NCBI GenBank assembly: GCA_903842235.1
Contig: CAIMLG010000278.1
Span: 1 to 63,362, forward strand
Length of the DNA: 63,362 bases
From: an uncultured Verrucomicrobia subdivision 3 bacterium
Lineage (GTDB): Bacteria; Verrucomicrobiota; Verrucomicrobiia; Limisphaerales; UBA11358
Direction of reading: 5' to 3'
Each line of letters begins with the position of its first letter. The first letter of the stretch is position 1. Shown here piece after piece: positions 457 to 63,362 of the stretch. The notes under the pieces are model-generated. The model was not told where the DNA came from. It made no database searches and saw nothing but the letters and a program-made list of their open reading frames with translations. A program made the position numbers and the translations under genes.

Positions 457-1012
457 AGGCCAGTCAACTGTCGCACAGATTCAAGGTCATGGATACCAGA
501 GATGGCGAGCCGTTGTGCGGGCAGGCTGCGGCTGTCCCAGACCGCCCAGCGCGTGGTCAGCGGGAGATAATCGTCAAGCAGATGCTGCCGGCTGCGCTTG
601 AACCGGCGGCGGATGTCAGCGGCAGGGACGTGGTGGCCACCCTGCTGGACGCGCTGGCGCACCCGGGCAATTGCCTGAGCCGGACTGGAGAGCCAGAGAT
701 AATGCAATTCAACCTCATACCCGAGTTGGCGGGCCCGCTGGAACAGCCGGATGTAGGTTTGCCGCTCAGCGTGTTTTCCAGCGCAAAAGTTTCGCGGTCA
801 CTGAGGCACGCCTCAACTTGGGCGAGCAACAGCCGCGCGGCTTGCACGGCCCCGGCGCTGGGCTTGAAAGGAGAAAGTCCCCGGGCGATTTCATCGGCTT
901 TGAGAAAGCGCAGACATTTCACTTCTTTGGGCAAAAACTCGCGGGCAAAGGTGGCTTTGCCCGCGCCATTGCAGCCGGCGATGACATAAATTGTTGGAGG
1001 CCGCGCGGACAT
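453..1012 (-). pseudogene. Zeta-toxin-like/COG4185 P-loop ATPase, frameshifted
   Basis: N half (IAGCNGAGKAT, ADEIA) is in ORF 557..1012; C half (YLWL..P..AIARVRQRV..GGHHVP..DIRRRF) is in ORF 453..707. One extra A at ~758-760 joins them into ~186 aa. Walker A is degenerate (GKAT). Confidence 0.8.
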
Positions 1013-1019
1013 GGCTCAT

Positions 1020-2570
1020 TCACTCCCACTCAATGGTCCCTGGCGGCTTGCTGGTGATGTCGAGGACGCAGCGGTTCACACCTTTCACCTCATTGATGAT
1101 GCGGCTCGCCAGCTTCTCCAGCAGGTCGTAGGGCAGCTTCACCCAGTCGGCGGTCATGCCGTCCTGCGATTCCACGGCGCGGATGGCAATGGTGTATTCG
1201 TAAGTCCGTTCGTCGCCCATCACGCCCACGCTGCGCACCGGCAGCAGCACGGCAAAGCTCTGCCAGATCTTGTAATACAGCCCGCTCAACTTCATTTCCT
1301 CGACGACAATGGTGTCGGCGTTGCGCAAAATCTCGCAGCGCGCGGGCGTCACTTCGCCGAGAATGCGCACGGCGAGGCCGGGACCGGGAAACGGCTGGCG
1401 CCAGACGATGTCCTTGGGCACGCCCAGTTCCTCGCCGAGCAGCCGGACCTCGTCCTTGAACAAATTTTTCAGCGGCTCGACCAGCTTGAACTTCATTCCC
1501 TTGGGCAGGCCGCCCACGTTGTGATGGCTCTTGATGAGCGCGGCGGGATTGCCGGCAATCGGCACGGACTCGATGACGTCGGGATACAGCGTGCCCTGCG
1601 CGAGGAACTTCGCCTGGTTCGCCTTGCCCACCCGTTTCGTCGCGGCCTGAAACACGTCAATGAACGTCTTGCCGATGACTTTGCGTTTCTTTTCGGGATC
1701 GGTCACGCCCTTGAGCTTGTTTAGAAACAGCTTCGTCGCGTCCACATATTGCAGCCGGATGTTGAAGCTGCGGGCGAAAATATTCTGCACCACTTCGGCT
1801 TCGCGGGCGCGGAGCAGGCCGTTGTTCACGAAAATGCAGGTGAGCTGGTCGCCGATGGCCTGGTGCAGGAGCGCGGCCGCCACGCTGGAATCCACGCCGC
1901 CGCTCAGGCCGAGCACGACGTGTTCCGAGCCGACTTGGGCGCGGATTTCCTCGACGGCCTGCTCGATGTAATTGCGCATTGTCCAATTTTTGCCGCAGCC
2001 GCAGACGCCGTGGACGAAATTGAAAATAATTTCTTTGCCGCGCGGCGTGTGGACCACTTCGGGGTGGAATTGCAGACCGAAGAATTTCCTGGCGCGATGC
2101 TCGATGGCCGCGTATTCGGAGTTGTCCGTGGCGGCCACGGGTTTGAAGCCGTTGGGCAGCCGGGTGAGCTTGTCGCCGTGGGAATTCCACACTTGCAGCT
2201 GCTTGGGCAGCTTGGCGAACAGTTTGCAGGCACCGTCCGTGATGGTGAGCGCGCCCTTGCCGTATTCGCGTTTCTGGCCTTTCTCGACCTTGCCGCCGAG
2301 GAATTGGGCGAACAGCTGGACGCCGAAGCAGATGCCGAGGATCGGCACGCCCAGATTGAAGATGGCTTTGTCCGGCAGCGGCGCTTTGGGCGCATACACG
2401 CTGGACGGGCCGCCGGAAAGAATGATGCCGCTGGGCTTCATGGCCGCGACGGCGGCGGCGGGGGTGTTGAACGGGATGATCGTGGAATATACGTTGCCCT
2501 CGCGGACCCGCCGGGCGATGACCTGCGTGTATTGGGAACCAAAATCAAGGATGACAATTTGTTCGTTCAT
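1020..2570 (-). CDS. guaA: GMP synthase (glutamine-hydrolysing)
   Basis: [47 protein letters not shown] motifs; 516 aa. Confidence 0.98.
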
Positions 2571-4770: not shown

Positions 4771-6828
4771 TTAGCCGCCGCGGGCAACCAGCTCCCGCGC
4801 CTGCCGGATCAGGTTCAAATCCTCCGCCAGATTGCCGAAACGCAGGTTCGGCAGGCCGCTCTGCTGCTGCCCCAGCAGTTCGCCCGGCCCCCGCAGCTTC
4901 AGGTCGGCTTCGGCGATTTTGAAGCCGTCATTGGTCTCCGCCAGTATCTTCAGCCGCGACTGGGCGTCTTCATGCGGTGCGTCGGAAATCAGGATGCAAA
5001 AGCTCTTGTGCGCGCCGCGCCCGATGCGCCCGCGCAGCTGGTGCAACTGCGCCAGCCCGAAATGCTCCGCGTTCTCAATGAGCATCACCGTGGCGTTCGG
5101 CACGTCCACGCCGACTTCGATCAGCGACGTGGCCACCAGCGCCTTAATTTTATTCGCGCGAAATTCTGCCATCGTCTTTTCCTTGTCCGCCGGCTTGATC
5201 CGCCCGTGCAGCAGGCCGACCTTGCAGCCGGTGAGCGCGCGTTGCACATTTTCAAATTCCTTCGTCACCGCCTTGATGTCTTTGTCCGCCACCTCGACGC
5301 GCGGATAAACAATGTAAGCCTGCCGTCCGCCGGCAATTTTCTCGCGGATAAACTCAAACACCTTCGGCAGCTTCTCCGTCGTTCGCACAAAGGTTTTGAT
5401 CGCGCCGCGCCCGCCGGGCATTTCGTCAATCACCGACACGTCGAGATCGCCGTAAAGCGTCAGCCCGAGCGTGCGCGGGATCGGCGTGGCCGTCATCACC
5501 AGCAGATGCGGGTAATGGCCCTTGCGCACCAGCGTCTCGCGCTGCGCCACGCCGAACTTGTGCTGCTCGTCAATGATCACCAGCCCCAGCTTCGGCAGTT
5601 CCAAGCCCGCCGTGAACAGCGCGTGCGTGCCGATGAACAAGGTTGAAGGTTCGCGTTGCGCCGCGCTTTGGACTTTGGACTTTGGACTTTGGACTTCCTG
5701 CGTCTTCCGGCTACCCGTTTGCAATTCCACCTTCACGCCCAGCGGCTCCAACCAATTGGTGAAATTTCGATAATGCTGCTCCGCCAGAATTTCCGTCGGC
5801 GCCATCAGTGCCCCGTTGAACCCGCTCTCCAGCGCCATCAATGCGCTGCATGCCGCCACCGCCGTCTTGCCCGAGCCGACGTCCCCTTGCAGCAAGCGCC
5901 GCATCGGATGCGCCCCGCCCATATCGGCCCGGATTTCCTTCAGCACGTTGGCCTGCGCGGCGGTGAGCTTGAAGCCGAGCGCGGCCAGAAACGGCTTCAT
6001 CAGCCGGTTGTCGCCGCCGCACGGCAAGCCCTTCGCGCTCGCCTCAAACTTTTTCCGGCGCGCCTGGATTTGAAATTGCAGCGCCACAAATTCATCCAGC
6101 GCCAGCCGCTGCCGCGCGATTTCCGCATCCAGCAACTCCTCCGGAAAATGGATCAGGCGCACCGCATTGGCCCGCGACGGCAAATTCAGGTAGGGCGCGC
6201 AGTCCTCTGCGCGCCGCGCTGTCGCCGCCGTCGGCGCACACGAAGTGTCGCGCCCTACCTGCGGTTCCGCGATTTCCTTTTCAAACTTCTCCAGCGCCCG
6301 CCAGACCAGCGAGCGCAGCACGCGCGCCGTCAGCCCTTCCGTGAGCGGATGCACCGGCACGATGCGATTGACGTGGATGAATTCGTCGTCGCCCGGCTCC
6401 ACCAGTTCCGTTTCGGGATGCGTGAAGGTGCGCGGCTTCTTGTCATCGTCCAGCTTGCCGTAAATCAAAAATTCGCGGCCCACCGCATACCAGTCCGGCA
6501 TCCACGGCTGCGCCTGCCACCAGCGGCCATGCAGCCGCGCCGTGCCGTCGTCGAACACGCACTCGAACATCGTCCGCGTGCCTTTCTTGAAGTGCTTGGT
6601 GCCGGCGGCGATGATTTGCCCGCGTACGGTGGCGGCTTCCTTCAACTGCAAATCGCGGATCGGCAGAAATTTTCGGCGATCCTCATAGCGGCGCGGCTTG
6701 TGGAGCAGCAAATCTTCGATGGTGAAAATGTCCAGGCGCGCCAGCAGCCGGGCGCGCTCCTCGCCCACGCCCCAGACCGAGCTGACGGGCGCAGCGAGCG
6801 GGGAAACGTGATTTTCCGGCGCGGACAT
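4771..6828 (-). CDS. recG: ATP-dependent DNA helicase RecG
   Basis: QGDVGSGKT, DEQH, MTATPIPRTL, QLHQLRGRIGRG, DLKLRGPGE; start at MSAPENH. Confidence 0.96.
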   Translation of the reverse strand: MSAPENHVSPLAAPVSSVWGVGEERARLLARLDIFTIEDLLLHKPRRYEDRRKFLPIRDLQLKEAATVRGQIIAAGTKHFKKGTRTMFECVFDDGTARLHGRWWQAQPWMPDWYAVGREFLIYGKLDDDKKPRTFTHPETELVEPGDDEFIHVNRIVPVHPLTEGLTARVLRSLVWRALEKFEKEIAEPQVGRDTSCAPTAATARRAEDCAPYLNLPSRANAVRLIHFPEELLDAEIARQRLALDEFVALQFQIQARRKKFEASAKGLPCGGDNRLMKPFLAALGFKLTAAQANVLKEIRADMGGAHPMRRLLQGDVGSGKTAVAACSALMALESGFNGALMAPTEILAEQHYRNFTNWLEPLGVKVELQTGSRKTQEVQSPKSKVQSAAQREPSTLFIGTHALFTAGLELPKLGLVIIDEQHKFGVAQRETLVRKGHYPHLLVMTATPIPRTLGLTLYGDLDVSVIDEMPGGRGAIKTFVRTTEKLPKVFEFIREKIAGGRQAYIVYPRVEVADKDIKAVTKEFENVQRALTGCKVGLLHGRIKPADKEKTMAEFRANKIKALVATSLIEVGVDVPNATVMLIENAEHFGLAQLHQLRGRIGRGAHKSFCILISDAPHEDAQSRLKILAETNDGFKIAEADLKLRGPGELLGQQQSGLPNLRFGNLAEDLNLIRQARELVARGG
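5666..5696. repeat. Heptamer tandem repeat (CTTTGGA)x4 inside recG
   Basis: Read directly; translated as EVQSPKSKVQS. Confidence 0.9.
6187..6261. repeat. REP-doublet (REPIN-like) element in frame within recG
   Basis: 13-bp perfect terminal inverted repeat CAGGTAGGGCGCG/CGCGCCCTACCTG, two internal hairpins, 75 bp = 25 codons. Confidence 0.88.
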
Positions 6829-18008: not shown

Positions 18009-18458
18009 TCAGCCCGGAACCGGGGCGGAATGAGTTTCCCGCCATTGTTGGCCGAGGGCCAGCAGCGTCTCGGGGGCGAGCGTTTTTTCCAACACGGGGA
18101 AGATGAGGTTTTCCTCGCGCCGGAAATGCTTGCGGGTGGCCCCCAGCGCCTTTTGCAGCAGGCGCCCGGCTTCCGCCGGATCCGTGGTGCGCTGGATCCG
18201 CTCGAAGTGAGCGTCAATTTCGTGATGATCCTGATGCAGCAGGTCCACGGTTCCCCGGTCGGCCAGGGTGTGGTCGAGCGCCACATAGGCCAGATTGGTC
18301 TCGGTCTCGGCATGGCCCTTTAACAAGCCTTCCACCAGGGTCGCCATCAGTTTCACTTCGGCAAGGGAAGCCGTGCGGGTTAAAATCCGTTCGATCTGAT
18401 CGAAAACTTCGCCGTAAATGGCGTGTTCCAAAGCGAGGGCGCGCGTGATGGTCTCCAT
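18009..18458 (-). CDS. Hemerythrin/HHE domain protein
   Basis: EH, H...E, DHHEI, HFRREE..IFP. Confidence 0.8.
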   Translation of the reverse strand: METITRALALEHAIYGEVFDQIERILTRTASLAEVKLMATLVEGLLKGHAETETNLAYVALDHTLADRGTVDLLHQDHHEIDAHFERIQRTTDPAEAGRLLQKALGATRKHFRREENLIFPVLEKTLAPETLLALGQQWRETHSAPVPG

Positions 18459-18853
18459 ACCCTCTACCCATGACACACTTGGCGGGGTGGCGCAAGCGGG
18501 GCAATTCGGTTTTTCGCCCCGGCGGAGTGGTGCGGAAAGCTAAACCGCCGGGCCAAAGTTTAACCAACCGTTGCGCCGGTGCCCGGCGCGGCTGCCGCCG
18601 CCGCTATCCCTCGCCCGCAGGAGGCTGCCCTTCGCCCGCGGGAGGGGGAGACTTGAGTTGCTTGGGAAGCGACAAAAGAAATTTGCTGTCAGGCGAAGGC
18701 CCGCTGCGGGCCGAACGAGCGGGCGCGAGTGAGTCCACTGGCCGCCGGCCGGTTGAGGCAAGTCGGGAAAAAACAAACTATTGCGGAGCGGGTGGCGCTT
18801 TCTGCCGAGGTTCATGGGGACAAAGGTGAGGGCGGTGGTTAAACCCTTTAAAT

Positions 18854-19012
18854 GGTAGGGACGGCGCGCTGCGCCGTCTGGGGTGGCCAGCCACAAGGAG
18901 CTTCGCGGATCGCGTCAAGGGTAGATGACTATTCCGGGCTTGGGTGGGGGCTGCTGCGACGTTCGCGCCTTGGCCTTGGTGGAGGGGGACAACGCGCTGC
19001 GCTGTCCGTGCC
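18854..19012. repeat. Intergenic GTAG-type REP doublet, partly decayed
   Basis: GGTAGGGACGGCGCgctGCGCCGTC at the left; degenerate inverse GGACAACGCGCTGCGCTGTCCGTGCC at the right. Confidence 0.65.
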
Positions 19013-19047
19013 CCCGAGCCGGCGAAAGGCAAGCTTAACGCCGTCTG

Positions 19048-19166
19048 AATTTTCCCCTTGACCGCCGTCGGTAATAATTGTATAATAATGTAAACTACAT
19101 TCAAACCGCGGGTTTCTTGGAACCGGGTTTGATGTTCTTTGACATTTTGTTCGCCGGGGCCGGCGG
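19048..19166 (+). promoter_or_regulatory. Repeated promoter-hairpin-boxA-like module, copy A
   Basis: TTGACC(19058)-17 bp-TATAAT(19081); CAAACC...GGTTTG hairpin; GTTCTTTGACA; 101/119 nt identical to 63150-63268. Confidence 0.8.
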
Positions 19167-19489
19167 GTTGGGTCGATGGCGGGAAGGCGGGAAGAAATGC
19201 CTCGCCACGGTCCGGAAACGGTCCGGTTTTGGATGCCCCATCAAGCACTTACAAAAATTGCCCCGGTTCGGGTAACCAGGATCAGCCCGCAGCCAACCCC
19301 GTGGCGGCCACGCCCTCGTCGCCCGGGGCATGCGGGGTGGTTTCGCTCTTGGGACGGACCCCCAAAGTCACAAGGCGTTGCTTTCCCCCTTGGGTTGAAG
19401 TCTCAGGTGGAATCCTTGGTCATCCGTGAACTCCGCGTCCAAGAATTTTTCGTGTGGTTCGCGGGGTTCGCGGTTAACATTTTTCGAAG

Positions 19490-20551
19490 ATGAAATCGAA
19501 AAAAGTCGCCATTGTCGGTGCGTCCGGGTATTCCGGCGAAGTCCTCGTGCAGTTGCTCCTGAACCATCCGCATGCGGAACTCGTGGCCGTCACCTCGCGC
19601 CAGAACGCCGGCCAGACGCTGGCCCAGGTGTTTCCCAAATTTGCCAGCCATCCGAAATCCAAAACGCTCCGGTTTTCTGAGCCCAACGCCGCGGTGCTCG
19701 CCCAGCAGGCGGAGGTGGTTTTTCTGGCCCTGCCGCATGGGGTGGCCGCTGAATTTGCCGTCCCGCTGAACGCCGCCGGTTGCGTGGTTATTGATCTCAG
19801 CGCCGATTTCCGGCTGCGGAGCGCGGAGGTTTACAAGGAATTTTACGCGCATGATCATCCCGCGCCCGAGTTGTTAAAAACAGCCGTTTACGGCTTGCCG
19901 GAAGTTTATCGGGAAGAAATTAAAAAATCCCTGCTCATCGCCTCCCCCGGCTGTTATCCGACGAGTATCCTGCTGCCGACCATTCCGCTGCTCAAAGCCG
20001 GCCTCATCCAGCCGACCGGCATTATCGCCGACTCGTTGAGCGGCGTCAGCGGTGCGGGGCGCAAGGCCGAGGTGGATTATTTGTTTTGCGAATGCAATGA
20101 GAGCGTCCGCCCCTACGGCGTGCCCAAGCACCGGCATTTGTCCGAGATTGAAGAGCAGCTTTCCTTCGCCGCCGGCACCAAGGTCACCATTCAGTTCACC
20201 CCGCATTTGATCCCGGTGAACCGGGGCATTTTAACCACGCTTTACCTCGCGCCGGCCGAGGCCTTCGGCGATGCCGCCGGCGCCGACGCGTTCGGTAAAA
20301 AGATCGCCGCGTGCTACCAGCAGGCTTACGCCACCGAGCCATTTGTGCGGTTGCTCGAAGGCAAAGCATTGCCCGATACGAAAAACGTGGTCGGCACCAA
20401 CGTCTGCGAATTTGCCTGGCGGCTGGACCCGCGCACCGGCCGATTGATCGTGATGAGCGCCGAGGACAATGTGGTCAAAGGCGCCAGCGGTCAGGCCGTG
20501 CAAAGCATGAATCTAGTCTGCGGCTGGCCGGAAACGTCCGGCCTGATCTAA
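19490..20551 (+). CDS. argC: N-acetyl-gamma-glutamyl-phosphate reductase
   Basis: GASGYSG, DLSADFRL, PGCYPT, SGVSGAGR, DNVVKGASGQAVQ. Confidence 0.97.
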   Translation: MKSKKVAIVGASGYSGEVLVQLLLNHPHAELVAVTSRQNAGQTLAQVFPKFASHPKSKTLRFSEPNAAVLAQQAEVVFLALPHGVAAEFAVPLNAAGCVVIDLSADFRLRSAEVYKEFYAHDHPAPELLKTAVYGLPEVYREEIKKSLLIASPGCYPTSILLPTIPLLKAGLIQPTGIIADSLSGVSGAGRKAEVDYLFCECNESVRPYGVPKHRHLSEIEEQLSFAAGTKVTIQFTPHLIPVNRGILTTLYLAPAEAFGDAAGADAFGKKIAACYQQAYATEPFVRLLEGKALPDTKNVVGTNVCEFAWRLDPRTGRLIVMSAEDNVVKGASGQAVQSMNLVCGWPETSGLI

Positions 20552-20558
20552 CGCCTCC

Positions 20559-21557
20559 ATGCCGCCGTCCTTGTCCCAATCTGCCGCCGAGCATCTGGAT
20601 GAACTGGTGCTGCCGTTTGTGCGCCAGGATTTCACCACCCTGGCAGACGATGCCACCGTGGAACAGGCGTTGGCCTCGATCCGCAGCCAGGGCGTGGGCG
20701 AGCGTGTGGTTTATTTTTATGTGGTGAATGCCGCGAAACAGCTCGTGGGTGTGGTGCCCACCCGCCGCCTGCTGACCACGCCGCTGGATAGCCGGTTGGT
20801 GGATATTATGATCCGCAATGTGGTGGCTATTCCCGCCACCGCCACCGTCATGGATGCGTGCGAATGTTTTGCCATCCACAAATTTTTCGCCTTTCCCATC
20901 CTTGATGCGGCCCGGCACGTGGTCGGCGTGGCGGATGTGGGCCTGTTCACCAATCAGGTCTTCGACGTGGCGGAGCGGGAGCAGATGGACGAAGTTTTTG
21001 AAGCCATCGGCTTCCGGGTCACGCAAGTCCGGGACGCCTCGCCGGGGCGGGCCTTTCGCATCCGTTTCCCCTGGCTGGTGACGACCCTCATCAGCGGCAC
21101 GTTCTGTGCGCTGCTGGCGAGCGCCTACGAGCTGACGCTGGCCAAGAGCCTTGTGCTGACGTTTTTTCTGACCATGATTCTCGGCCTGAATGAAAGCGTC
21201 AGCATCCAATCCATGACCATGACGATTCAGGCGCTGCGTTCGCTGACCCCGACGCGGCGCTGGTATCTCCAGGCGTTCCGGCGCGAAGCCGGCACCGCGC
21301 TGCTGCTCGGGCTGGCCTGCGGGGTCATTGTGCTGATCATTTCCTGCGTCTGGCGCGGTCCGGACCTGGCGGCCGTGGTGGTGGGCGTGACCATTTTTCT
21401 AACGCTCTGCGTGGCCTGCCTTGCTGGGTTGTCGGTGCCAACCATTCTGCACGCCCTCAAGCTGGATCCCAAAATTGCCGCCGGCCCGCTGACGCTGGCG
21501 CTGACTGACATTATCGCGCTGCTGCTGTATTTTAATCTCGCCAAGTTTCTCCTGTGA
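20559..21557 (+). CDS. MgtE-family transporter (CBS pair + TM domain, no N domain)
   Basis: YFYVV...LVGVV..RRLL; RFPWL; DPKIAAGPLTLALTD. Confidence 0.8.
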   Translation: MPPSLSQSAAEHLDELVLPFVRQDFTTLADDATVEQALASIRSQGVGERVVYFYVVNAAKQLVGVVPTRRLLTTPLDSRLVDIMIRNVVAIPATATVMDACECFAIHKFFAFPILDAARHVVGVADVGLFTNQVFDVAEREQMDEVFEAIGFRVTQVRDASPGRAFRIRFPWLVTTLISGTFCALLASAYELTLAKSLVLTFFLTMILGLNESVSIQSMTMTIQALRSLTPTRRWYLQAFRREAGTALLLGLACGVIVLIISCVWRGPDLAAVVVGVTIFLTLCVACLAGLSVPTILHALKLDPKIAAGPLTLALTDIIALLLYFNLAKFLL

Positions 21558-21558
21558 C

Positions 21559-22434
21559 ATGAAATATGCCGCTGCGAACCTGGCGTGGAATCCGGCCGAT
21601 TACGCCGCCAATTCGGCCGTGCAGCTCAGCTGGGCGCGCGAGCTCCTCGGCCGGCTCCATCTGCGCGGCGACGAGCACCTCCTCGATGTTGGCTGCGGCG
21701 ATGGCAAGATCACGGCGGAAATCGCCCGGGCTTTGCCGCGCGGCGCGGTGGTGGGGATGGATGCCTCGGCGGAAATGATCGCCTTTGCCCGCAAAATGTT
21801 TCCGGTCAGCCGTCATTCTAATTTGGATTTTCAAGTGTGCGACGCTCGGGAAATCGAAACATTGGTAGGGCGCGTCACTCCGTGCGCGCCGGATGCTCGA
21901 CAGCCTCGCGCCGGCGGGCAGAAGACTGCCCGCCCTACCTTTGACGTAGTCTTCTCCAACGCCGCCTTGCATTGGGTGGATGATCACGAGGCAATTTTGC
22001 ACGGCGCGGCGGCCTGCCTCAAACCCGGCGGCCGCTTGGTGGTTTCCTGCGGCGGCAAAGCAAACGCGCACGAGGTGTTTCTGGCGCTGCGACCGGAAAT
22101 GCGGCTGAAGCGCTGGCGCGCATATTTTCGCCAGATGCCCATGCCCTATCACTTTTATTCGCCCGCCGATTACGAAAAATGGTTGCCGCGCGCCGGGTTC
22201 AAAATCCAGAAAGTGGAACTCGCGCCGAAAGCGGCGCTTTACGACGGCGCGGCTGGTTTGGCTGCCTGGCTGCGCACGACGTGGCTGCCGTTCACCCAGC
22301 GCGTGCCGGCAGCGTTGCGCGAAGAATTCCTCACCGCCGTCACGCATCGCTATCTCTCCGTGCATCCGCCGGATGCGGCGGGCCAGGTCCACGTCCGCAT
22401 GGTGCGGCTGGAGATTCAAGCGGAGAAAATTTAA
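21559..22434 (+). CDS. Class I SAM methyltransferase (Tam-like)
   Basis: LLDVGCGDG, DAS.EMI, FDVVFSNAALHW, LKPGG. Confidence 0.88.
   Translation: MKYAAANLAWNPADYAANSAVQLSWARELLGRLHLRGDEHLLDVGCGDGKITAEIARALPRGAVVGMDASAEMIAFARKMFPVSRHSNLDFQVCDAREIETLVGRVTPCAPDARQPRAGGQKTARPTFDVVFSNAALHWVDDHEAILHGAAACLKPGGRLVVSCGGKANAHEVFLALRPEMRLKRWRAYFRQMPMPYHFYSPADYEKWLPRAGFKIQKVELAPKAALYDGAAGLAAWLRTTWLPFTQRVPAALREEFLTAVTHRYLSVHPPDAAGQVHVRMVRLEIQAEKI
21864..21939. repeat. GTAG-type REP doublet translated within the methyltransferase gene
   Basis: GGTAGGGCG/CGCCCTACC termini as in the recG element; internal hairpin GGCGGGCAG-aaga-CTGCCCGCC. Confidence 0.88.
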
Positions 22435-27271: not shown

Positions 27272-27771
27272 TTCACAATGCGCGCCGGCCGGAGAATTTC
27301 GCCGCGCACCTTGTCGAGAATGCCGTTGACGAACTTGCCGCTGTCCTCGGTGGAAAATTTCTTCGCGATGTCCACCGCCTCGTTGATGCTCACCACGGGG
27401 GGAATGTCCTCGCGGTGCAGCATTTCGTAGATGGCCAGGCGCATCACATTGCGGTCCACCACGGCGATGCGGTGGAAATCCCAGTTGCGGGCGTGCTTCT
27501 TGATGTGCTCGTCAATGGCGTCGCGGTGCTGGAGCACGCCCTTGATGAGCGGCTCGGCAAAGAGGCGCGTCTCGGCCTCTTCGGCGGTGGGCGGCGGTAG
27601 TTCGGTCTTTTCGCCCCACTTGGCCATGCCGGACTTTTCGTCCTCAATGGCGGCGGCGCGCTGGGAATTCCAGAACGTCGCCAGTTCCAACTCAAGGTTG
27701 TCTGGTGGATTCAGGTCGTGCTGAAACAAGAATTGAACTGCGCGTTCGCGCGCTTCGCGTCGTTTTCCCAT
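27268..27771 (-). CDS. nusB: Transcription antitermination factor NusB
   Basis: RREARERAVQFLF, VDRNVMRLAIYE, INEAVDIAKKF, FVNGILD. Confidence 0.96.
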   Translation of the reverse strand: MGKRREARERAVQFLFQHDLNPPDNLELELATFWNSQRAAAIEDEKSGMAKWGEKTELPPPTAEEAETRLFAEPLIKGVLQHRDAIDEHIKKHARNWDFHRIAVVDRNVMRLAIYEMLHREDIPPVVSINEAVDIAKKFSTEDSGKFVNGILDKVRGEILRPARIVK

Positions 27772-59205: not shown

Positions 59206-62200
59206 ATGCAAGCTGGAAATTCACTCCGCAAAGGCTTCGTGGTGGCCGCATTTTTGATTCTTCTCGTCGCTCCCCTTGGCCGCGCGGCTGAAAGGCAAGT
59301 GGTGCGCCAGCCGCGGCTTCCCCTCCCCAGCGCCTGGCCATCCTTGGGGACGCTGCCGGCCACCAATGCTTTGAATCTGGCCATCGGCTTGCCCCTGCGG
59401 AATCCGGCGGCCCTTTCCAATTGGCTGCAACAAGTCTATGACCCCGCCAGCTCAAATTATCATCACTACCTGACCCCGGAGCAGTTCGCCGAACAGTTTG
59501 GCCCGACGGAAGCGGATTACCAGGCCGTCATCGCGTTCGCCAACGCGAACGGCTTGCCGGTCACGGCCACGCACCCCAACCGCCTGTTGCTGGATGTGCG
59601 TGGAACCGTGGCGCAGGTGGAACAGGCCTTGCATGTGACCCTGCGCACCTATCCGCATCCGGGGGAGAACCGGACGTTCTATGCGCCGGACGCCGATCCA
59701 TCGCTCGCTCTGGCCGCGCCCATTTTGGGCATCAGCGGTTTGGACAATTATTCGCTGCCGCGCCCGCGGCTGGTGGCCCAGCCGCTGGTTCAAGCCGAGA
59801 GCGCCGCGCCGAATTCGGGTTCGGGTACGGGCGGCACCTACTTGGGCAAGGATTTTCGGGCGGCCTATGTCCCGGATTCCGCGCTCGACGGTGCGGGCCA
59901 GGTGGTGGGTTTGTTGCAATTTGATGGTTACGCGGCCAGCGACATTGCCTATTACGTCAGCCAGGCCGGCCTGCCCAGCGTGCCCTTGCAAAATGTGCTG
60001 CTGAACGGATTCAGCGGCCACCCCACGGGCAGCGGCGGCGAAGTGGAGGTGTGTTTGGACATTGAAATGGCGATCGCCATGGCGACCAATTTGTCCAAGG
60101 TGATGGTTTATGAGGCCGGTCCGTATGGCAACTGGCACGACCTCCTGAATCGGATGGCCACCGACAATCTGGCCAAACAATTGAGTTGTTCCTGGTATAT
60201 TCCCTATGGCGGGGCCGATCCGGTGGCCGATCAGATCTGGCAGCAGATGGCGGCCCAGGGGCAATCGTTTTTCAACGCCTCGGGCGACAATGACGCCTAT
60301 GCCGGCTTGATTCCGTTTCCCGGCGACAGTCCCTATATCACGCAAGTGGGCGGAACGACCTTGACGACGAGCGGCCCGGGCGGGGCCTGGGCTTCGGAGC
60401 AGGTCTGGAACTGGGGCGGCGGCATCGGCAGCGGCGGCGGCATCAGCACCACCTATCCGATTCCGGGCTGGCAGACCAACCTCAATATGGCGATCAATCA
60501 AGGCTCGCTGACCAAACGCAATACGCCGGATGTGGCGCTGACGGCGAACAATGTTTATGTGCGGGCGAATGGGCGGGACTATAATGTGGCCGGGACGAGC
60601 TGCGCGGCCCCGCTTTGGGCGGGTTTCGCGGCCCTGATCAATCAGCAGGCGGCGGCGGCCGGCCGGCGATCGGATTTGCCAATCCCGCCCTCTACGCGAT
60701 CGGCGCGGGGGCAGATTATCCCGCCGCGTTTCATGACATCACCTTGGGCAACAATGAAAGCCCCGGCAGTCCCACCAAATTTTCCGCGGTGGCCGGCTAT
60801 GACCTCTGCACCGGCTGGGGCACGCCGGCGGGGCAAAGGCTCATCAATGCGCTCGCCAATCCTGAACCCCTGCAAATCACGCCCTTGACCGGCTTTGCCG
60901 CCAGCGGCGGCGTGGGCGGACCGTTCACCCGCACGGCCCAGAGTTTTTCGCTGACCAATCTGGGAACCAATACGTTGACTTGGTCGCTCGTCAACACCTC
61001 GGCCTGGCTCACGGTTTCGTCCGCCGGCGGCCCGCTGCCGGCCGGTGGATTTGTCGCCGACGTGACGGTGTGCCTGAATACCACCGCCAGCAATCTGCTG
61101 GTGGGGAATTATAGCGCCACCCTATGGTTTACCAACCTGAGCGACAATTTCGGGCAAAGCCGTCAATTTGCCTTGTCCGTGATCAGCCCGCCCGCCATCA
61201 CCGCGCAGCCCGCCGATCAATCCGTCTTGGAAGGCGCCCCCGCCGCGTTCTCGGTCGCTGCGGTCGGTGGCCTGCCGCTGTCCTATCAATGGCAGAACAA
61301 CGGGACCAATCTGGTTGATGACGGCAACCTCGCCGGGTCCACCACCACCAATCTGCTGGTCCGCCAGGTTACCGCCGCTCACGGCGGAAGCTACACGGTG
61401 GTGGTGGCCAATGCGGCCGGCACGGTGACCAGTTCCAATGCGATGCTGACGCTGATTCCCTCGCCTCCGGTCATCACCCTGCAGCCGGCGGATGCGACCG
61501 TGGTGGTGAACGGCCCGGCCCGGTTTTTCGTGGCTGCGCTGGGCACCCAGCCCATTGCTTATCAATGGAGTTTCAACGGCACGAACCTCCTGGCCGGGGC
61601 GACGAATTCCTGGCTGACCTTGACCAATGTCCAATATTCGCAGTCCGGGGTTTATGCGGTGACGGTGACAAATATTTTCGGGGCCACCAATAGTTCCAAT
61701 GCCGCCTTAACGGTGACGCCGTGTGCTCCGGCTCCAGCCGGGCTGGTGAGTTGGTGGGCGGCGGAGGGGAACGCTTGGGATCAGATCGGCGGCAATCACG
61801 GCACGTTGTTTGGCAATGCCAGCTACGGAGCGGGGGAAGTGGGCTGGGGATTTGTCTTTGACGGCAGCAGCGATGGGGTGTTCGTGGGGAACCCCACCAA
61901 TCTCCAGCTTCAAAACTTCACGATTGAAGCCTGGATCAAACGGTCCAGCAGCACGGCGGTTTCCGGCAGCGCACCCAACGCCTGGTTGTTCGGCTACGGC
62001 AGCAACGGCTATGGGTTTGAATTGTGGAACGATGGTCGGATCTCCCTGACCAAGGCTGGGGTTGACGAAGTTGACGGAAGCATCAGTATTACCGATACCA
62101 ACCTTCACCATGTGGCGGTCACCAAGAACGGGAGCACCGTCACTTTCTATGTGGATGGGGTCGGCTGTCCGCCCGTGGTTTACAGCGCGGTCTTTTCCTT

Positions 62201-63119
62201 CACCACCTCGGCTGCGATTGGCTGTCTGGGCACAACAACTTGCAGCTTTCTGGGTTTGATGGATGAGGTGAGTGTCTATAACCGGCCTCTGTCCGCGGCC
62301 GAAGTGCAGGGCATCTATCTGGCCAACAGCGGGGGCAAGTGTTTCACGCCCGTGCCGCCGACGATCACGAGCCAGCCGACGAACCAGACGGTGTTCGCGG
62401 GCCAGACCGCCAGTTTCAGTGTCCTGGCCAGTGGCACGCCGCCGCTGACCTACCAGTGGGCCTGCAACACCACGAATCTGGCTGGGGCCACCAACGCCAC
62501 GCTGCTCTTCCCCGCCGCGCAGTTCACCAACGCCGGCACTTACAGCGTGACCGTAAGGAGCCCCTTTGCCGCTACCCTCAGTTCCAATGCCATTTTGACG
62601 GTGAATAACAAATTGGATCACTTCGCCTGGAGCCCGATCCCCTCCCCCCGTTTTGTCAATGTGCCTTTTGCCGTGACGATTCAAGCGCTGGATGCGACCA
62701 ACGGAATGTTCACCGATTTCACCGGCCCCGCCCTTTTAAGCTCCACCAATGGAATGCCCGTCAATCCAACAGTTACGGCCGCCTTTGCCCAGGGCACCTG
62801 GACCGGCTTGATCAATATTTCCCAACCGGCGACCAACCTCGTGCTGCGGGTGGCCGGCGGGAATGGGGAAGCCGGCCTGGCCAAATCCATCAATGTGGTC
62901 AACTTGCCGACCCTCGGGTTCACGCCTTCAGGTAATTTCCTGATGGTTTACTGGCCGGTGGCTGCCTCCAACTTCGTGCTGGAGACCTCCACCAACCTTT
63001 CGCCCGCGCAATGGCATCCAATGGATAGTCCGCCGCTGAAAATCGGCGACCAATATTTGGAATCCATTCAAATGAACAGCGCCAATCAATTTTATCGCCT
63101 TTGGTATATCGGCCCCTGA
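59206..63119 (+). pseudogene. S53 (sedolisin/kumamolisin) protease fused to Ig and LamG domains, split by one frameshift near 60660
   Basis: Prodomain YLTPEQF...FGP; EVCLD, ASGD, GTSCAAP catalytic motifs. The S53 tail (IGFANPALY, FHDIT.GNN, GYDLCTGWGTP) continues in ORF 60615..63119. Confidence 0.85.
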
Positions 63120-63149
63120 CCCTGCCCGGCAACCCAAGCGCTGCGTGTA

Positions 63150-63268
63150 AATTTTCCCCTTGACCGCCGTCCGTCATTGTCGTATAAGAAAGCCATCTAC
63201 GAGCAAACAGCGGATTTCTTGGAGCCGGGTTTGCCGTTCTTTGACATTTTGTTCGCCGGGGCCGGCGG
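63150..63268 (+). promoter_or_regulatory. Repeated promoter-hairpin-boxA-like module, copy B
   Basis: TTGACC(63160)-17 bp-TATAAG(63183); identical 22-bp 5' block and 33-bp 3' block shared with 19048-19166. Confidence 0.8.
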
Positions 63269-63362
63269 CTGGTTGGATCGGTGTTTGCGCCCTCTCGTCG
63301 CCCGTTCTCGCTCGTGCGCGCTTCCCGCCTTGCCTGGGCTGGGTGTCTGCCTCGGGCCGGTG

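Follow-up and report, generated by a model that had tools for sequence, protein, structure and literature searches.

Introduction

Antitermination through Nus factors and boxA is regarded as nearly rRNA-specific, the few extra targets being suhB, some arrays of clustered regularly interspaced short palindromic repeats (CRISPR) and phage nut sites; the nut sites of phage lambda are one case of boxA outside ribosomal RNA (rrn) operons. Among dispersed repeats, the Correia elements of Neisseria carry promoters. According to the accessible part of Baniulyte et al. (2017, PMC5725501), boxA occurs outside rrn operons at suhB and other gamma-proteobacterial genes, with 0-7 putative boxA sites per genome and 'only a few regulatory targets' expected per species, and CRISPR operons are mentioned as boxA users in the accessible part of PMC13753749. 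The BOX, RUP and SPRITE elements of Streptococcus pneumoniae are described as dispersed modular intergenic repeats in the available text of Croucher et al. (2011, PMC3049150). In the open-access literature we found no account of a promoter and boxA repeated together in many copies, and nothing relevant to boxA in Verrucomicrobia was among the matches listed there. Here we analyse a repeat with a promoter-like site and a boxA-like motif (hereafter the cassette), two copies of which, A and B, lie in a contig of an uncultured Verrucomicrobia bacterium; this contig (C278), the whole 63,362-nt stretch of DNA that was analysed, is referred to as the window.

The window's own genome (G000) is a 4.32-Mb Verrucomicrobiota metagenome-assembled genome (MAG) of 354 contigs with 88.65% completeness and 59.6% G+C. 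The feature conserved within this genome and between species is the promoter-like site followed by a boxA in the sense direction, and the rest is patchwork. We give about an even chance to the reading that the cassette is a dispersed, lineage-specific promoter joined to a Nus-type antitermination leader.

Results

Copies of the cassette in the window and its genome

A preliminary description of the window had reported an rRNA-leader-like module repeated 44.1 kb apart. Realignment confirmed that 19048-19166 and 63150-63268 match without gaps at 101 of 119 positions (BLAST E = 1e-33, far beyond chance) and that the longest identical block is 33 bp, starting at 19134 and opening with GTTCTTTGACATTTTG. 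Both members of the pair are real, and the pair is incomplete: the genome was found by BLAST to hold 13 copies (E of 3e-10 or lower; Table 1), together with a 14th, diverged unit at C198:7230-7345 whose boxA reads GATCTTTGACATATTG. The layout of the cassette is TTGACC, 17 nt, TATAAN, a hairpin, the boxA-like 12-mer GTTCTTTGACAT, a GC hairpin and a modular leader of 250-700 nt, so arranged that boxA lies about 40 nt into the predicted transcript. In copy A the two hexamers (TTGACC and TATAAT, with a 17-nt spacer) match the promoter consensus at 11 of 12 positions, the -10 is predicted to end 47 nt upstream of boxA, and the 2 kb scanned held 4 promoter-like sites against 0.3 expected from shuffles. 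The -10 of copy B is TATAAG, lacking T at the last position. This base is variable in general, TATAAT being present in copy A and C91 only and TATAAG, TATAAA, TATAGG or TATATG elsewhere, and the strong promoter claimed for the module held for copy A only.

The first ~250 nt were found to be common to all copies, with homology between subfamilies beginning sharply ~10-20 nt upstream of the -35 hexamer. Subfamily A (C83, C91, C250, C151 and C203) is alike on to +305-372, and C151 and C91 to +690. Subfamily B (C105, C314, C56, C278:63144, C107 and C247) is 91-98% identical internally and shares a further ~100-nt upstream repeat and an AT-rich continuation to +481, with which contig C170 opens. 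Five of the 13 copies are located within 0-121 nt of a contig end; such breaks, including the end of the window at copy B, are sufficiently explained by six near-identical copies that span several hundred bases. The leaders are patchworks with large insertions and deletions and variable microsatellite-like arrays. A further shared 11-mer, CTCGTCGCCCG, had been pointed out downstream of both window copies, and it is indeed present at 19315-19325 and 63294-63304. In copy B it is part of a conserved leader common to most copies; in copy A it lies ~150 nt out of register, the homologous leader segment being deleted there, and the two occurrences are therefore not positional homologues.

Other repeats were observed in and around the leaders. 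Tandem word arrays, (TGTCATCGGA)x3-4, (GCACCGAA)n and (GGTGCCAAAA)n, occur at the mreB locus (L014 6001-6037) and in C83, C250, C185 and C203, and the leaders of the congener G071 carry (GGTGACAAAAAG)n and (GGTGCGGTTT)n; their copy number differs between cassettes, and some pair with upstream inverted copies into long imperfect hairpins. Directly upstream of the subfamily-B cassettes lies a separate ~110-nt dispersed repeat (C105:35256-35385, oriented), of which at least 10 further copies unlinked to the cassette were seen in the genome (C130, C215, C197, C127, C279, C220 and others). A palindrome of the repetitive extragenic palindrome (REP) kind, GGGACnGCGCnnnGCGCnGTCC, is present in the window at 18858-18879 and 18986-19007 and in L014 at 5460-5487 and 6164-6191. 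About 45 matches to it (up to 2 substitutions) were spread over 32 contigs of the genome, against 0 for the reversed control, and some subfamily-A cassettes have it on one side or on both.

Contigs of four DNA sequencing runs were compared with 18300-20100, where the organism was present at low depth in pieces of 43-274 nt. The 223-nt contig X2 equals 18941-19163 with zero differences, and two contigs start in boxA and go on with the subfamily-B continuation; as the runs may be the MAG's own source, these contigs are not independent support, and no meaning attaches to the parts left uncovered. Small shares of 18400-21600 were found in five DNA runs from two studies, and no RNA run was listed for this region. 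Exact-pattern scans of the collections genome_contigs (two patterns) and metagenome_contigs (one pattern), from which the window's own genome was possibly left out, returned 0 loci; the patterns were too specific to the flanks in this genome, and the family in congeners was later found by the 12-mer alone. The cassette as coding DNA was rejected: reverse-strand open reading frames (ORFs) of 85-109 aa cross the promoter, and their frame is not kept between copies.

Conservation and predicted RNA structure

Alignment of the 11 full copies over 139 columns gave pairwise identities of 69-98.5% (median 84%) with 68 of 139 columns invariant. The invariant columns cluster at 19051-19067 (TTTCCCCTTGACCGCCG), 19080-19084 (GTATA), 19127-19131 (GTTTG) and 19136-19142 (TCTTTGA), and a run as long as the 17 invariant columns over the -35 region arose once when the column labels were shuffled 20000 times.

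RNAalifold predicted two hairpins, one whose end lies 1-3 nt short of boxA and a GC hairpin that follows boxA after 4 nt; no conserved structure was predicted beyond ~+100. Standard pairs filled 92.5% of the pair cells of the predicted structure against 89.7% after shuffling (reached in 0 of 500 shuffles), the covariation score was 0.143 against 0.103 (1 of 500), and double changes were seen in three pairs, as 71 of 500 shuffles also reached. These pair statistics are modest support, since the structure was derived from the same sequences, and folds of single sequences were no more stable than shuffles (z -1.46 to +0.33). A hairpin beside boxA was found in 11/11 copies of this genome and in 51% of shuffled-flank controls, the copies being mutually homologous. 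Across species, where a minimum-free-energy hairpin closing within 6 nt of an unpaired boxA was scored, the overall result was 52% against 47% in controls, i.e., no general signal. A Rho-loading (rut-like) tract after boxA was also considered and dropped, the excess of C over G being mild (C 38-42%, G 20-30%, +141 to +161).

Identity of the boxA-like motif

The motif GTTCTTTGACA fits the gamma-proteobacterial boxA consensus GYTCTTTAANA, as given in the accessible part of PMC5725501, at 10 of 11 positions. The sole mismatch is a G at position 8; the same G was found in 8/8 congener rrn boxA sequences, and the boxA of Bacillus subtilis, AUGAUCUUUGAAA in the available text of PMC13753749, also has G at this position. 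In all eight congeners whose rrn leaders were read (G003, G010, G016, G017, G099, G081, G112 and G049) the leader contains TGCTC[T/A]TTGAAAATTGA. This rrn boxA variant, GCTCWTTGAAAA (TGCTCWTTGAAAATTGA; RNA word GCUCUUUGAAAA), lies 137-151 nt before 16S in flanks unrelated to the cassette, and a second copy is present in the spacer where that was read. The comparison with the organism's rrn boxA that had been proposed could thus be made with its congeners, giving a match at 9 of 12 positions, the window's genome itself being without rRNA genes. The dispersed 12-mer was not at the rrn locus in G099, G081, G112 and G049. G099 carries the rrn boxA as well as three dispersed words, separated by 100 kb or more; this coexistence and the 9/12 match indicate that the cassettes are not copies of the rrn leader but carry a sister variant of its signal.

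The boxA 12-mer in congeners

Exact counts of the 12-mer GTTCTTTGACAT were obtained in 101 genomes, with a chance expectation, by arithmetic, of ~0.5 per genome. The highest numbers were found in G111 (21), G062 (18), G071 (15), the window's genome (11), G056 (10), G089 (9) and G116 (6), and all other genomes had 0-4; at least one instance was present in 45 of the 101, and the reversed control gave 0-2. Besides the window's genome, at least six further species of its GTDB genus thus have 6-21 cassettes built on this word. G073 enters the tallies only as one genome without motif matches. The flanks of the 12-mer differ between species and are unrelated around boxA. The word contains TTGACA, but a -10-like hexamer 16-18 nt after it was found in 0 of 62 instances, so the 12-mer is not a -35.

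Promoter-like sites upstream of the 12-mer were then scored in five genomes, requiring a match of at least 10/12 with A at -11, within 160 nt upstream on the sense strand. Such sites preceded 22 of 59 instances (window's genome 6/7, G056 7/8, G071 6/11, G111 3/21, G062 0/12), against 1 of 59 for antisense sites upstream and 0 of 59 downstream on either strand. In G062 an extended -10-like sequence, TGCTATGTT, is read from the sequence ~95 nt upstream in 4 of 12 copies. Promoter-plus-boxA units with GTTCTTTGACAT were also found in G071, upstream of the second dispersed element described below.

Position relative to native control regions

The cassette version of the window's genome was not found by BLAST in 40 sampled relatives, 24 of them of the same genus, nor in the five congeners with the most similar ArgC (88-90% identity). 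The one match obtained among the 40, in G040, was rejected as chance: it lies inside an ORF that reads like an ABC-ATPase (UvrA-like), and Rfam gave nothing there.

Three loci could be compared with congeners. At mreB, the gap to the upstream gene is ~100 nt in G079 and G094 and contains a promoter-like TTGACC...TTAACT. In the window's genome ~2.67 kb are inserted, comprising a 491-aa ORF, a duplicated 169-nt 3' end of the upstream gene, the cassette and other repeats, and the native promoter region is kept at L014 6306-6372. The duplicate itself follows the ORF and is diverged, being 80% identical to the G079 orthologue; ORF and duplicate lie at L014 3635-5435 (contig C151), ahead of the cassette, and this local rearrangement is absent from G079 and G094. 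At rho, a conserved promoter and ~200-nt leader occur in five congeners; the window's genome keeps both, with the cassette 1.15 kb upstream of them. The native rho leader (L015 ~960-1060, minus strand; L143-L147 in congeners) reads ...GACTGCGAAATTCCCCTTGCCG...CGTCCAATGCG... in the window's genome and the five congeners; it is a candidate for autoregulation of rho, and no Rfam match was obtained at E up to 1. At argC, synteny is broken: the nearest relative, G091, has rplM-rpsI and then a terminator-like hairpin, read from the sequence, ahead of argC, and no cassette; only the last ~45 nt before argC are common to both genomes. As judged from these comparisons, the cassette has been added upstream of the native control regions of mreB, rho and argC and does not replace them.

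Genes behind the copies and their orientation

It had been stated that no rRNA stands behind copy A, which instead faces argC-argJ across repeat-rich DNA. Both points were borne out: the copy leads to argC across a repeat-rich spacer of ~1 kb. This spacer (18477-19489), almost all of it repeat modules, separates argC from a divergent hemerythrin-domain gene at 18009-18476 (-). On the side of copy B, 31 nt before it ends the gene 60615-63119 (+) for an 834-aa exoprotein with Ig / Laminin_G_3 domains; the protein ends in ...NQFYRLWYIGP* and its C-terminal tail fits F[FY]R[LV].

No Rfam 15 family reached the gathering score in the window, where no tRNA was seen either; in six cassette loci the Rfam search that had been suggested was without a match at E up to 1, and a search of 18 loci in G111 returned only tRNAs. 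No tRNA was found behind the copies in the window's genome and no rRNA behind the resolved ones, the genome being without any 16S or 23S. The C105 copy and the continuation in C170 run into the AT-rich leader and then into ordinary genes, with no rRNA within ~1 kb. Neither the mreB leader (1 kb) nor the stretch behind the C105 copy showed an intrinsic-terminator-like site in the cassette direction. No transposase domain was found among the neighbours of resolved copies that were scanned with Pfam, a whole-genome partner screen not having been made. At C151, the one locus examined, there were neither terminal inverted repeats nor target duplications, only REP-like palindromes on both sides, and comparison of the filled with the empty site at mreB gave no clean junction. 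At a distance of 8 kb from copy A the window encodes nusB (PF01029, 119.9 bits; 27307-27759, -), and rho is also present in the genome.

Orientation was assigned from the first Pfam-supported downstream gene at resolved loci. In the window's genome 4 loci were co-directional and 2 convergent (7 of the 13 BLAST copies and the diverged C198 unit were left out), in G111 13 and 4 (1 of 18 loci left out), and in G071 5 and 5 (3 left out, besides 1 cut off by a contig end and 1 other). The co-directional genes in G111 include tRNA-Thr-tuf, smpB, lpxC-lpxA, lpxI, kdsA, leuA, serA and FAA-hydrolase-proS, with an unsupported ORF in between at 2 of the 13 loci. Cassette sites of G111 and G071 are not orthologous, and their loci share only pieces of leader repeats; a convergent pseudouridine-synthase gene is downstream in both, the loci not being alike at E < 1e-20. 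A cassette at rho was found in the window's genome only. From these non-orthologous sites and the rho cassette, the family turns over between species, in the manner of repeats that are mobile or spread by recombination. At three loci of G111 tandem boxA words were seen on the same strand, 258-468 nt apart (C1:34251/34509; C2:109854/110300; C5:36078/36546), reminiscent of tandem P1/P2 leaders.

A second dispersed element in the leaders

The leader of copy A holds a second dispersed element, GGATGCTCTATCAACCACTTACAA, which was the only part of the leaders of this genome that BLAST found in G091. It consists of two 7-nt direct repeats with a 4-nt spacer, followed by TTTYGGATGCTCTATCAACCACTTACAA, and is present at 19209-19254 of the window and at 16 other places in the genome. 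In copy A the direct repeats occupy 19209-19227 and GGATGCCCCATCAAGCACTTACAA 19231-19254; other examples are C83:2675-2698 and C151:9796-9819. The repeated word is GGTNNAG-like; it varies between copies, but its two occurrences in one copy are identical. Allowing 3 mismatches at most, the 24-mer of the element was counted 22 times in G071, 20 in G111, 17 in the window's genome, 17 in G009, 13 in G069, 12 in G007 and 5 in G091; it was found in 10 of 101 congeners, and the reversed control gave 0. In three species it lies 230-600 nt downstream of boxA and is very conserved. In its 11-bp periodicity it is similar to response-regulator boxes that precede a -10, and the element could be a regulated promoter or the start of a tiny ORF (MLYQPLTK). 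The tiny ORF was rejected: coding is unlikely because residue 5 varies (P, A, R, G), the tails are unrelated and 8-nt tandem units follow.

Table 1. Features of the cassette copies and the genes behind them (window coordinates unless a contig is named; + distances as given for the first downstream gene)
Feature	Position	Strand	Remarks
5' edge, copy A	19040..19057	+	edges from all-against-all BLAST; TTTCCCC directly upstream of the -35 invariant
-35 hexamer TTGACC, copy A	19058..19063	+	invariant in 13/13 copies
-10 hexamer TATAAT, copy A	19081..19086	+	predicted start ~19093-19095; only GTATA 19080-19084 invariant
boxB-like hairpin (CAAACC...GGTTTG), copy A	19097..19133	+	predicted by folds, RNAalifold and pair counts; ends 1-3 nt before boxA
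boxA-like motif GTTCTTTGACATTTTG, copy A	19134..19149	+	core 12-mer 19134-19145
GC hairpin directly after boxA, copy A	19150..19167	+	predicted by folds, RNAalifold and pair counts
Rest of untranslated leader, copy A	19168..19489	+	~95-nt deletion relative to other copies; holds the second dispersed element and the displaced CTCGTCGCCCG
argC, first gene 3' of copy A	19490..20551 (+451)	+	then MgtE/CBS gene, methyltransferase gene and argJ; ORFs and Pfam
5' edge, copy B	63144..63159	+	25-31 nt past the stop codon of the exoprotein gene 60615-63119
-35 hexamer TTGACC, copy B	63160..63165	+	
-10 hexamer TATAAG, copy B	63183..63188	+	last position not T; predicted start ~63195-63197
boxB-like hairpin, copy B	63199..63235	+	predicted by folds and RNAalifold
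boxA-like motif, copy B	63236..63251	+	
GC hairpin and subfamily-B leader, copy B	63252..63362	+	leader cut by contig end; 97% identical to C105, 98% to C314
Copies not cut inside the unit, forward	C278:19040, C278:63144, C83, C314, C250, C151	+	
Copies not cut inside the unit, reverse	C203, C91, C56, C105, C185	-	
Copies cut by a contig end	C107, C247	-	both cut inside the unit, at the same stopping place in boxA
mreB, behind C151	+861		ORFs and Pfam
YfhO-like membrane protein, then pfk, behind C250	+709		ORFs and Pfam
rho, behind C203	+1325		ORFs and Pfam
Kelch/fn3 protein, behind C83			convergent; ORFs and Pfam
SASA-type esterase, behind C105			convergent; ORFs and Pfam

Discussion

That the module is a portable antitermination promoter was among the possibilities raised at the outset, and it is the one favoured here. 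Its support comes from the many copies, the focused conservation, the fit of boxA, the insertion upstream of native promoters and the 12-mer families elsewhere; on the other side, one third of the resolved copies face convergent genes. Rrn-style processive antitermination is the simplest mechanism using both the promoter and boxA. RNA polymerase would start at the cassette's own promoter, as predicted from its sequence, and by analogy with rrn operons NusB and S10 (NusE) would bind boxA on the nascent RNA, upon which the elongation complex would become Rho-resistant. The polymerase would then cross the untranslated, repeat-rich leader of 0.4-1.3 kb into the next gene, and this transcription would add to that from the gene's native promoter, which for copy A is that of the argC operon. 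Promoter firing, NusB/S10 binding and suppression of Rho are steps that we infer. As part of the same reading, and with the same evenly divided confidence, the antitermination cassette may turn over quickly between species, by transposition or recombination.

Several observations weigh against a promoter joined to an antitermination leader. In 11 of the 13 copies the -10 does not end in T, usually a key base in the contact with sigma-70; good upstream sigma-70 matches were also few in G062 (0/12) and G111 (3/21), and both the promoter and the RNA of the cassette are predictions. The dispersed boxA differs from the rrn boxA of the genus at 3 of 12 positions, so that recognition by the same NusB and S10 is assumed. 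The hairpin beside boxA is not general (2/13 in G071 and 8/21 in G111, with controls at ~46-50%), and the copy counts in the window's genome are not independent because the copies are homologous. The co-directional bias is weak, at 22 of 33 loci (one-sided binomial p = 0.04), and neutral insertion into longer divergent spacers could give a similar bias; at the other 11 of 33, which face a convergent gene, termination-resistant transcription would be antisense.

These convergent loci (C83, C105 and probably C198 in the window's genome, four in G111 and five in G071) would be explained more readily if the cassette were a self-contained multi-copy non-coding RNA gene, its 250-700-nt RNA being the product, for instance in regulation or in sponging a protein, and the neighbours incidental. 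A boxA would suit such an untranslated RNA, the leader sequence is conserved to +250 and in some copies to +690, and the second element 230-600 nt past boxA is very conserved in three species. We nevertheless hold this to be unlikely: RNAalifold predicted no conserved structure beyond the first ~100 nt, the two leaders scanned have no intrinsic terminator to serve as a 3' end, no Rfam match was obtained even at E up to 1, the boxA flanks are unrelated between species, and the leaders are patchworks with indels and variable arrays, copy A being without ~95 nt. The cassette might also be a selfish or neutral repeat of the miniature inverted-repeat transposable element (MITE), BOX or REP-cluster type, its promoter and boxA words being by-products or serving its own spread, with no role in host expression. 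It is lineage-restricted, the version of the window's genome being absent from the 24 sampled congeners, from the five nearest relatives and, as an exact pattern, from two public collections; its sites are non-orthologous (G111 against G071, and rho); it is inserted upstream of intact native promoters and embedded among other repeat families, including the REP-like palindrome; the orientation bias is weak; and the invariant 17-mer stands at the 5' edge of the element, where it could be a recombinase site. However, the one locus examined had no terminal inverted repeats or target duplications, no transposase domain was among the Pfam-scanned neighbours, and across species only the 12-mer boxA is kept, with promoter-like sites upstream in sense and flanks otherwise different, which argues for selection on the promoter and boxA and not on element ends. 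A selfish or neutral repeat is an improbable reading as well.

The remaining explanations were given far less weight. The preliminary description had named a known insertion sequence (IS) end, or an rrn leader fragment with rRNA just beyond 63362, as what the module might prove to be. No IS or transposase stands beside the resolved copies and no rRNA behind them, although the MAG lacks rRNA genes altogether and the contig ends at 63362. That the copies are rrn operon leaders, or fragments or pseudo-copies of them, with the rRNA beyond the contig ends, would be in line with the missing 16S and 23S, with the five copies 0-121 nt from a contig end and with the rrn-type order of promoter, hairpin and boxA. 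But 13 copies are far above the rrn operon number expected in the group, the resolved subfamily-B sequence (C105 and its continuation C170) runs into ordinary genes, the rrn leaders of 8/8 congeners carry the different boxA TGCTCWTTGAAAATTGA in unrelated flanks, the dispersed 12-mer was off the rrn locus in the four congeners named above, and six copies sharing 91-98% identity across several hundred bases account for the contig breaks; an rrn origin is very improbable indeed. Little more credible is that GTTCTTTGACAT acts as a site in the DNA, for instance an operator for a transcription factor or part of a promoter, instead of as a signal in the RNA. The word contains TTGACA and is invariant as DNA, and, as it is not palindromic, RNA and DNA roles are indistinguishable from the sequence alone; yet a -10-like hexamer followed at 16-18 nt in 0/62 instances, the word is always downstream of a promoter-like site on the same strand, and it fits boxA consensus sequences from three phyla.

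The reading as a promoter with a Nus-type antitermination leader can be extended, though at this wider scope we regard it as doubtful. The cassette would then be an 'rRNA-style expression cassette' that is mobile, a non-coding element by which a promoter and a dedicated Nus-boxA variant are copied around the genomes of a Verrucomicrobiota subclade; dozens of operons (tuf, smpB, lpxC, leuA, mreB, rho, argC and others) would gain Rho-resistant transcription, possibly coupled to growth rate, and GUUCUUUGACAU would define a second antitermination class beside the rrn boxA. If true, processive antitermination can spread by repeated DNA and can carry transcription over long untranslated spacers, with 10-20 promoter-boxA copies per genome before unrelated housekeeping operons in one genus. 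The 12-nt RNA word and the nusB gene 8 kb away in the window form a small, concrete set for a binding test. The cassette family also explains several contig breaks of the MAG and marks likely transcription starts in these genomes.

Among known systems, the rrn leader is the closest in build. In Escherichia coli and B. subtilis, according to the available text of PMC13753749, and in the congeners read here, it has the same order of promoter, hairpin, single-stranded boxA and further hairpin; a hairpin stands directly upstream of boxA in B. subtilis and in congener rrn leaders, as in the cassette. The boxA core UCUUUGA is common to both, and the signal comes early in an untranslated transcript. 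Unlike an rrn leader, the cassette has no rRNA behind it, occurs in at least 13 copies per genome with unrelated flanks, and stands upstream of protein operons or faces convergent genes.

The boxA sites of suhB, CRISPR operons and nut regions are Nus-type boxA on non-ribosomal transcripts, as is proposed for the cassette, and CRISPR arrays offer a precedent for shielding a long untranslated RNA from Rho. Such sites are single and locus-specific, whereas the boxA of the cassette travels with its own promoter as a repeat. In suhB, according to the accessible description, boxA lies less than 50 nt from the start codon and represses, whereas cassette boxA motifs lie 350-1250 nt from start codons.

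With the BOX, RUP and SPRITE elements, as far as the available text describes them, and with Correia elements the cassette shares the multi-copy, lineage-restricted, modular and intergenic character. Those elements are co-transcribed with neighbours, are thought to affect neighbour expression and show slow turnover among relatives. The 'boxA' module of pneumococcus has no relation to the Nus boxA. Extensive secondary structure is the defining trait of BOX-type elements, as terminal repeats are of MITE-like ones. The cassette showed no terminal repeats at the one locus examined, and extensive conserved structure of the unit is lacking, with only two short hairpins in the first ~100 nt; its conserved core is a predicted promoter with a putative antitermination word. 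The cassette thus resembles the described dispersed repeats in its many intergenic copies, modular build, restriction to a lineage and variable sites.

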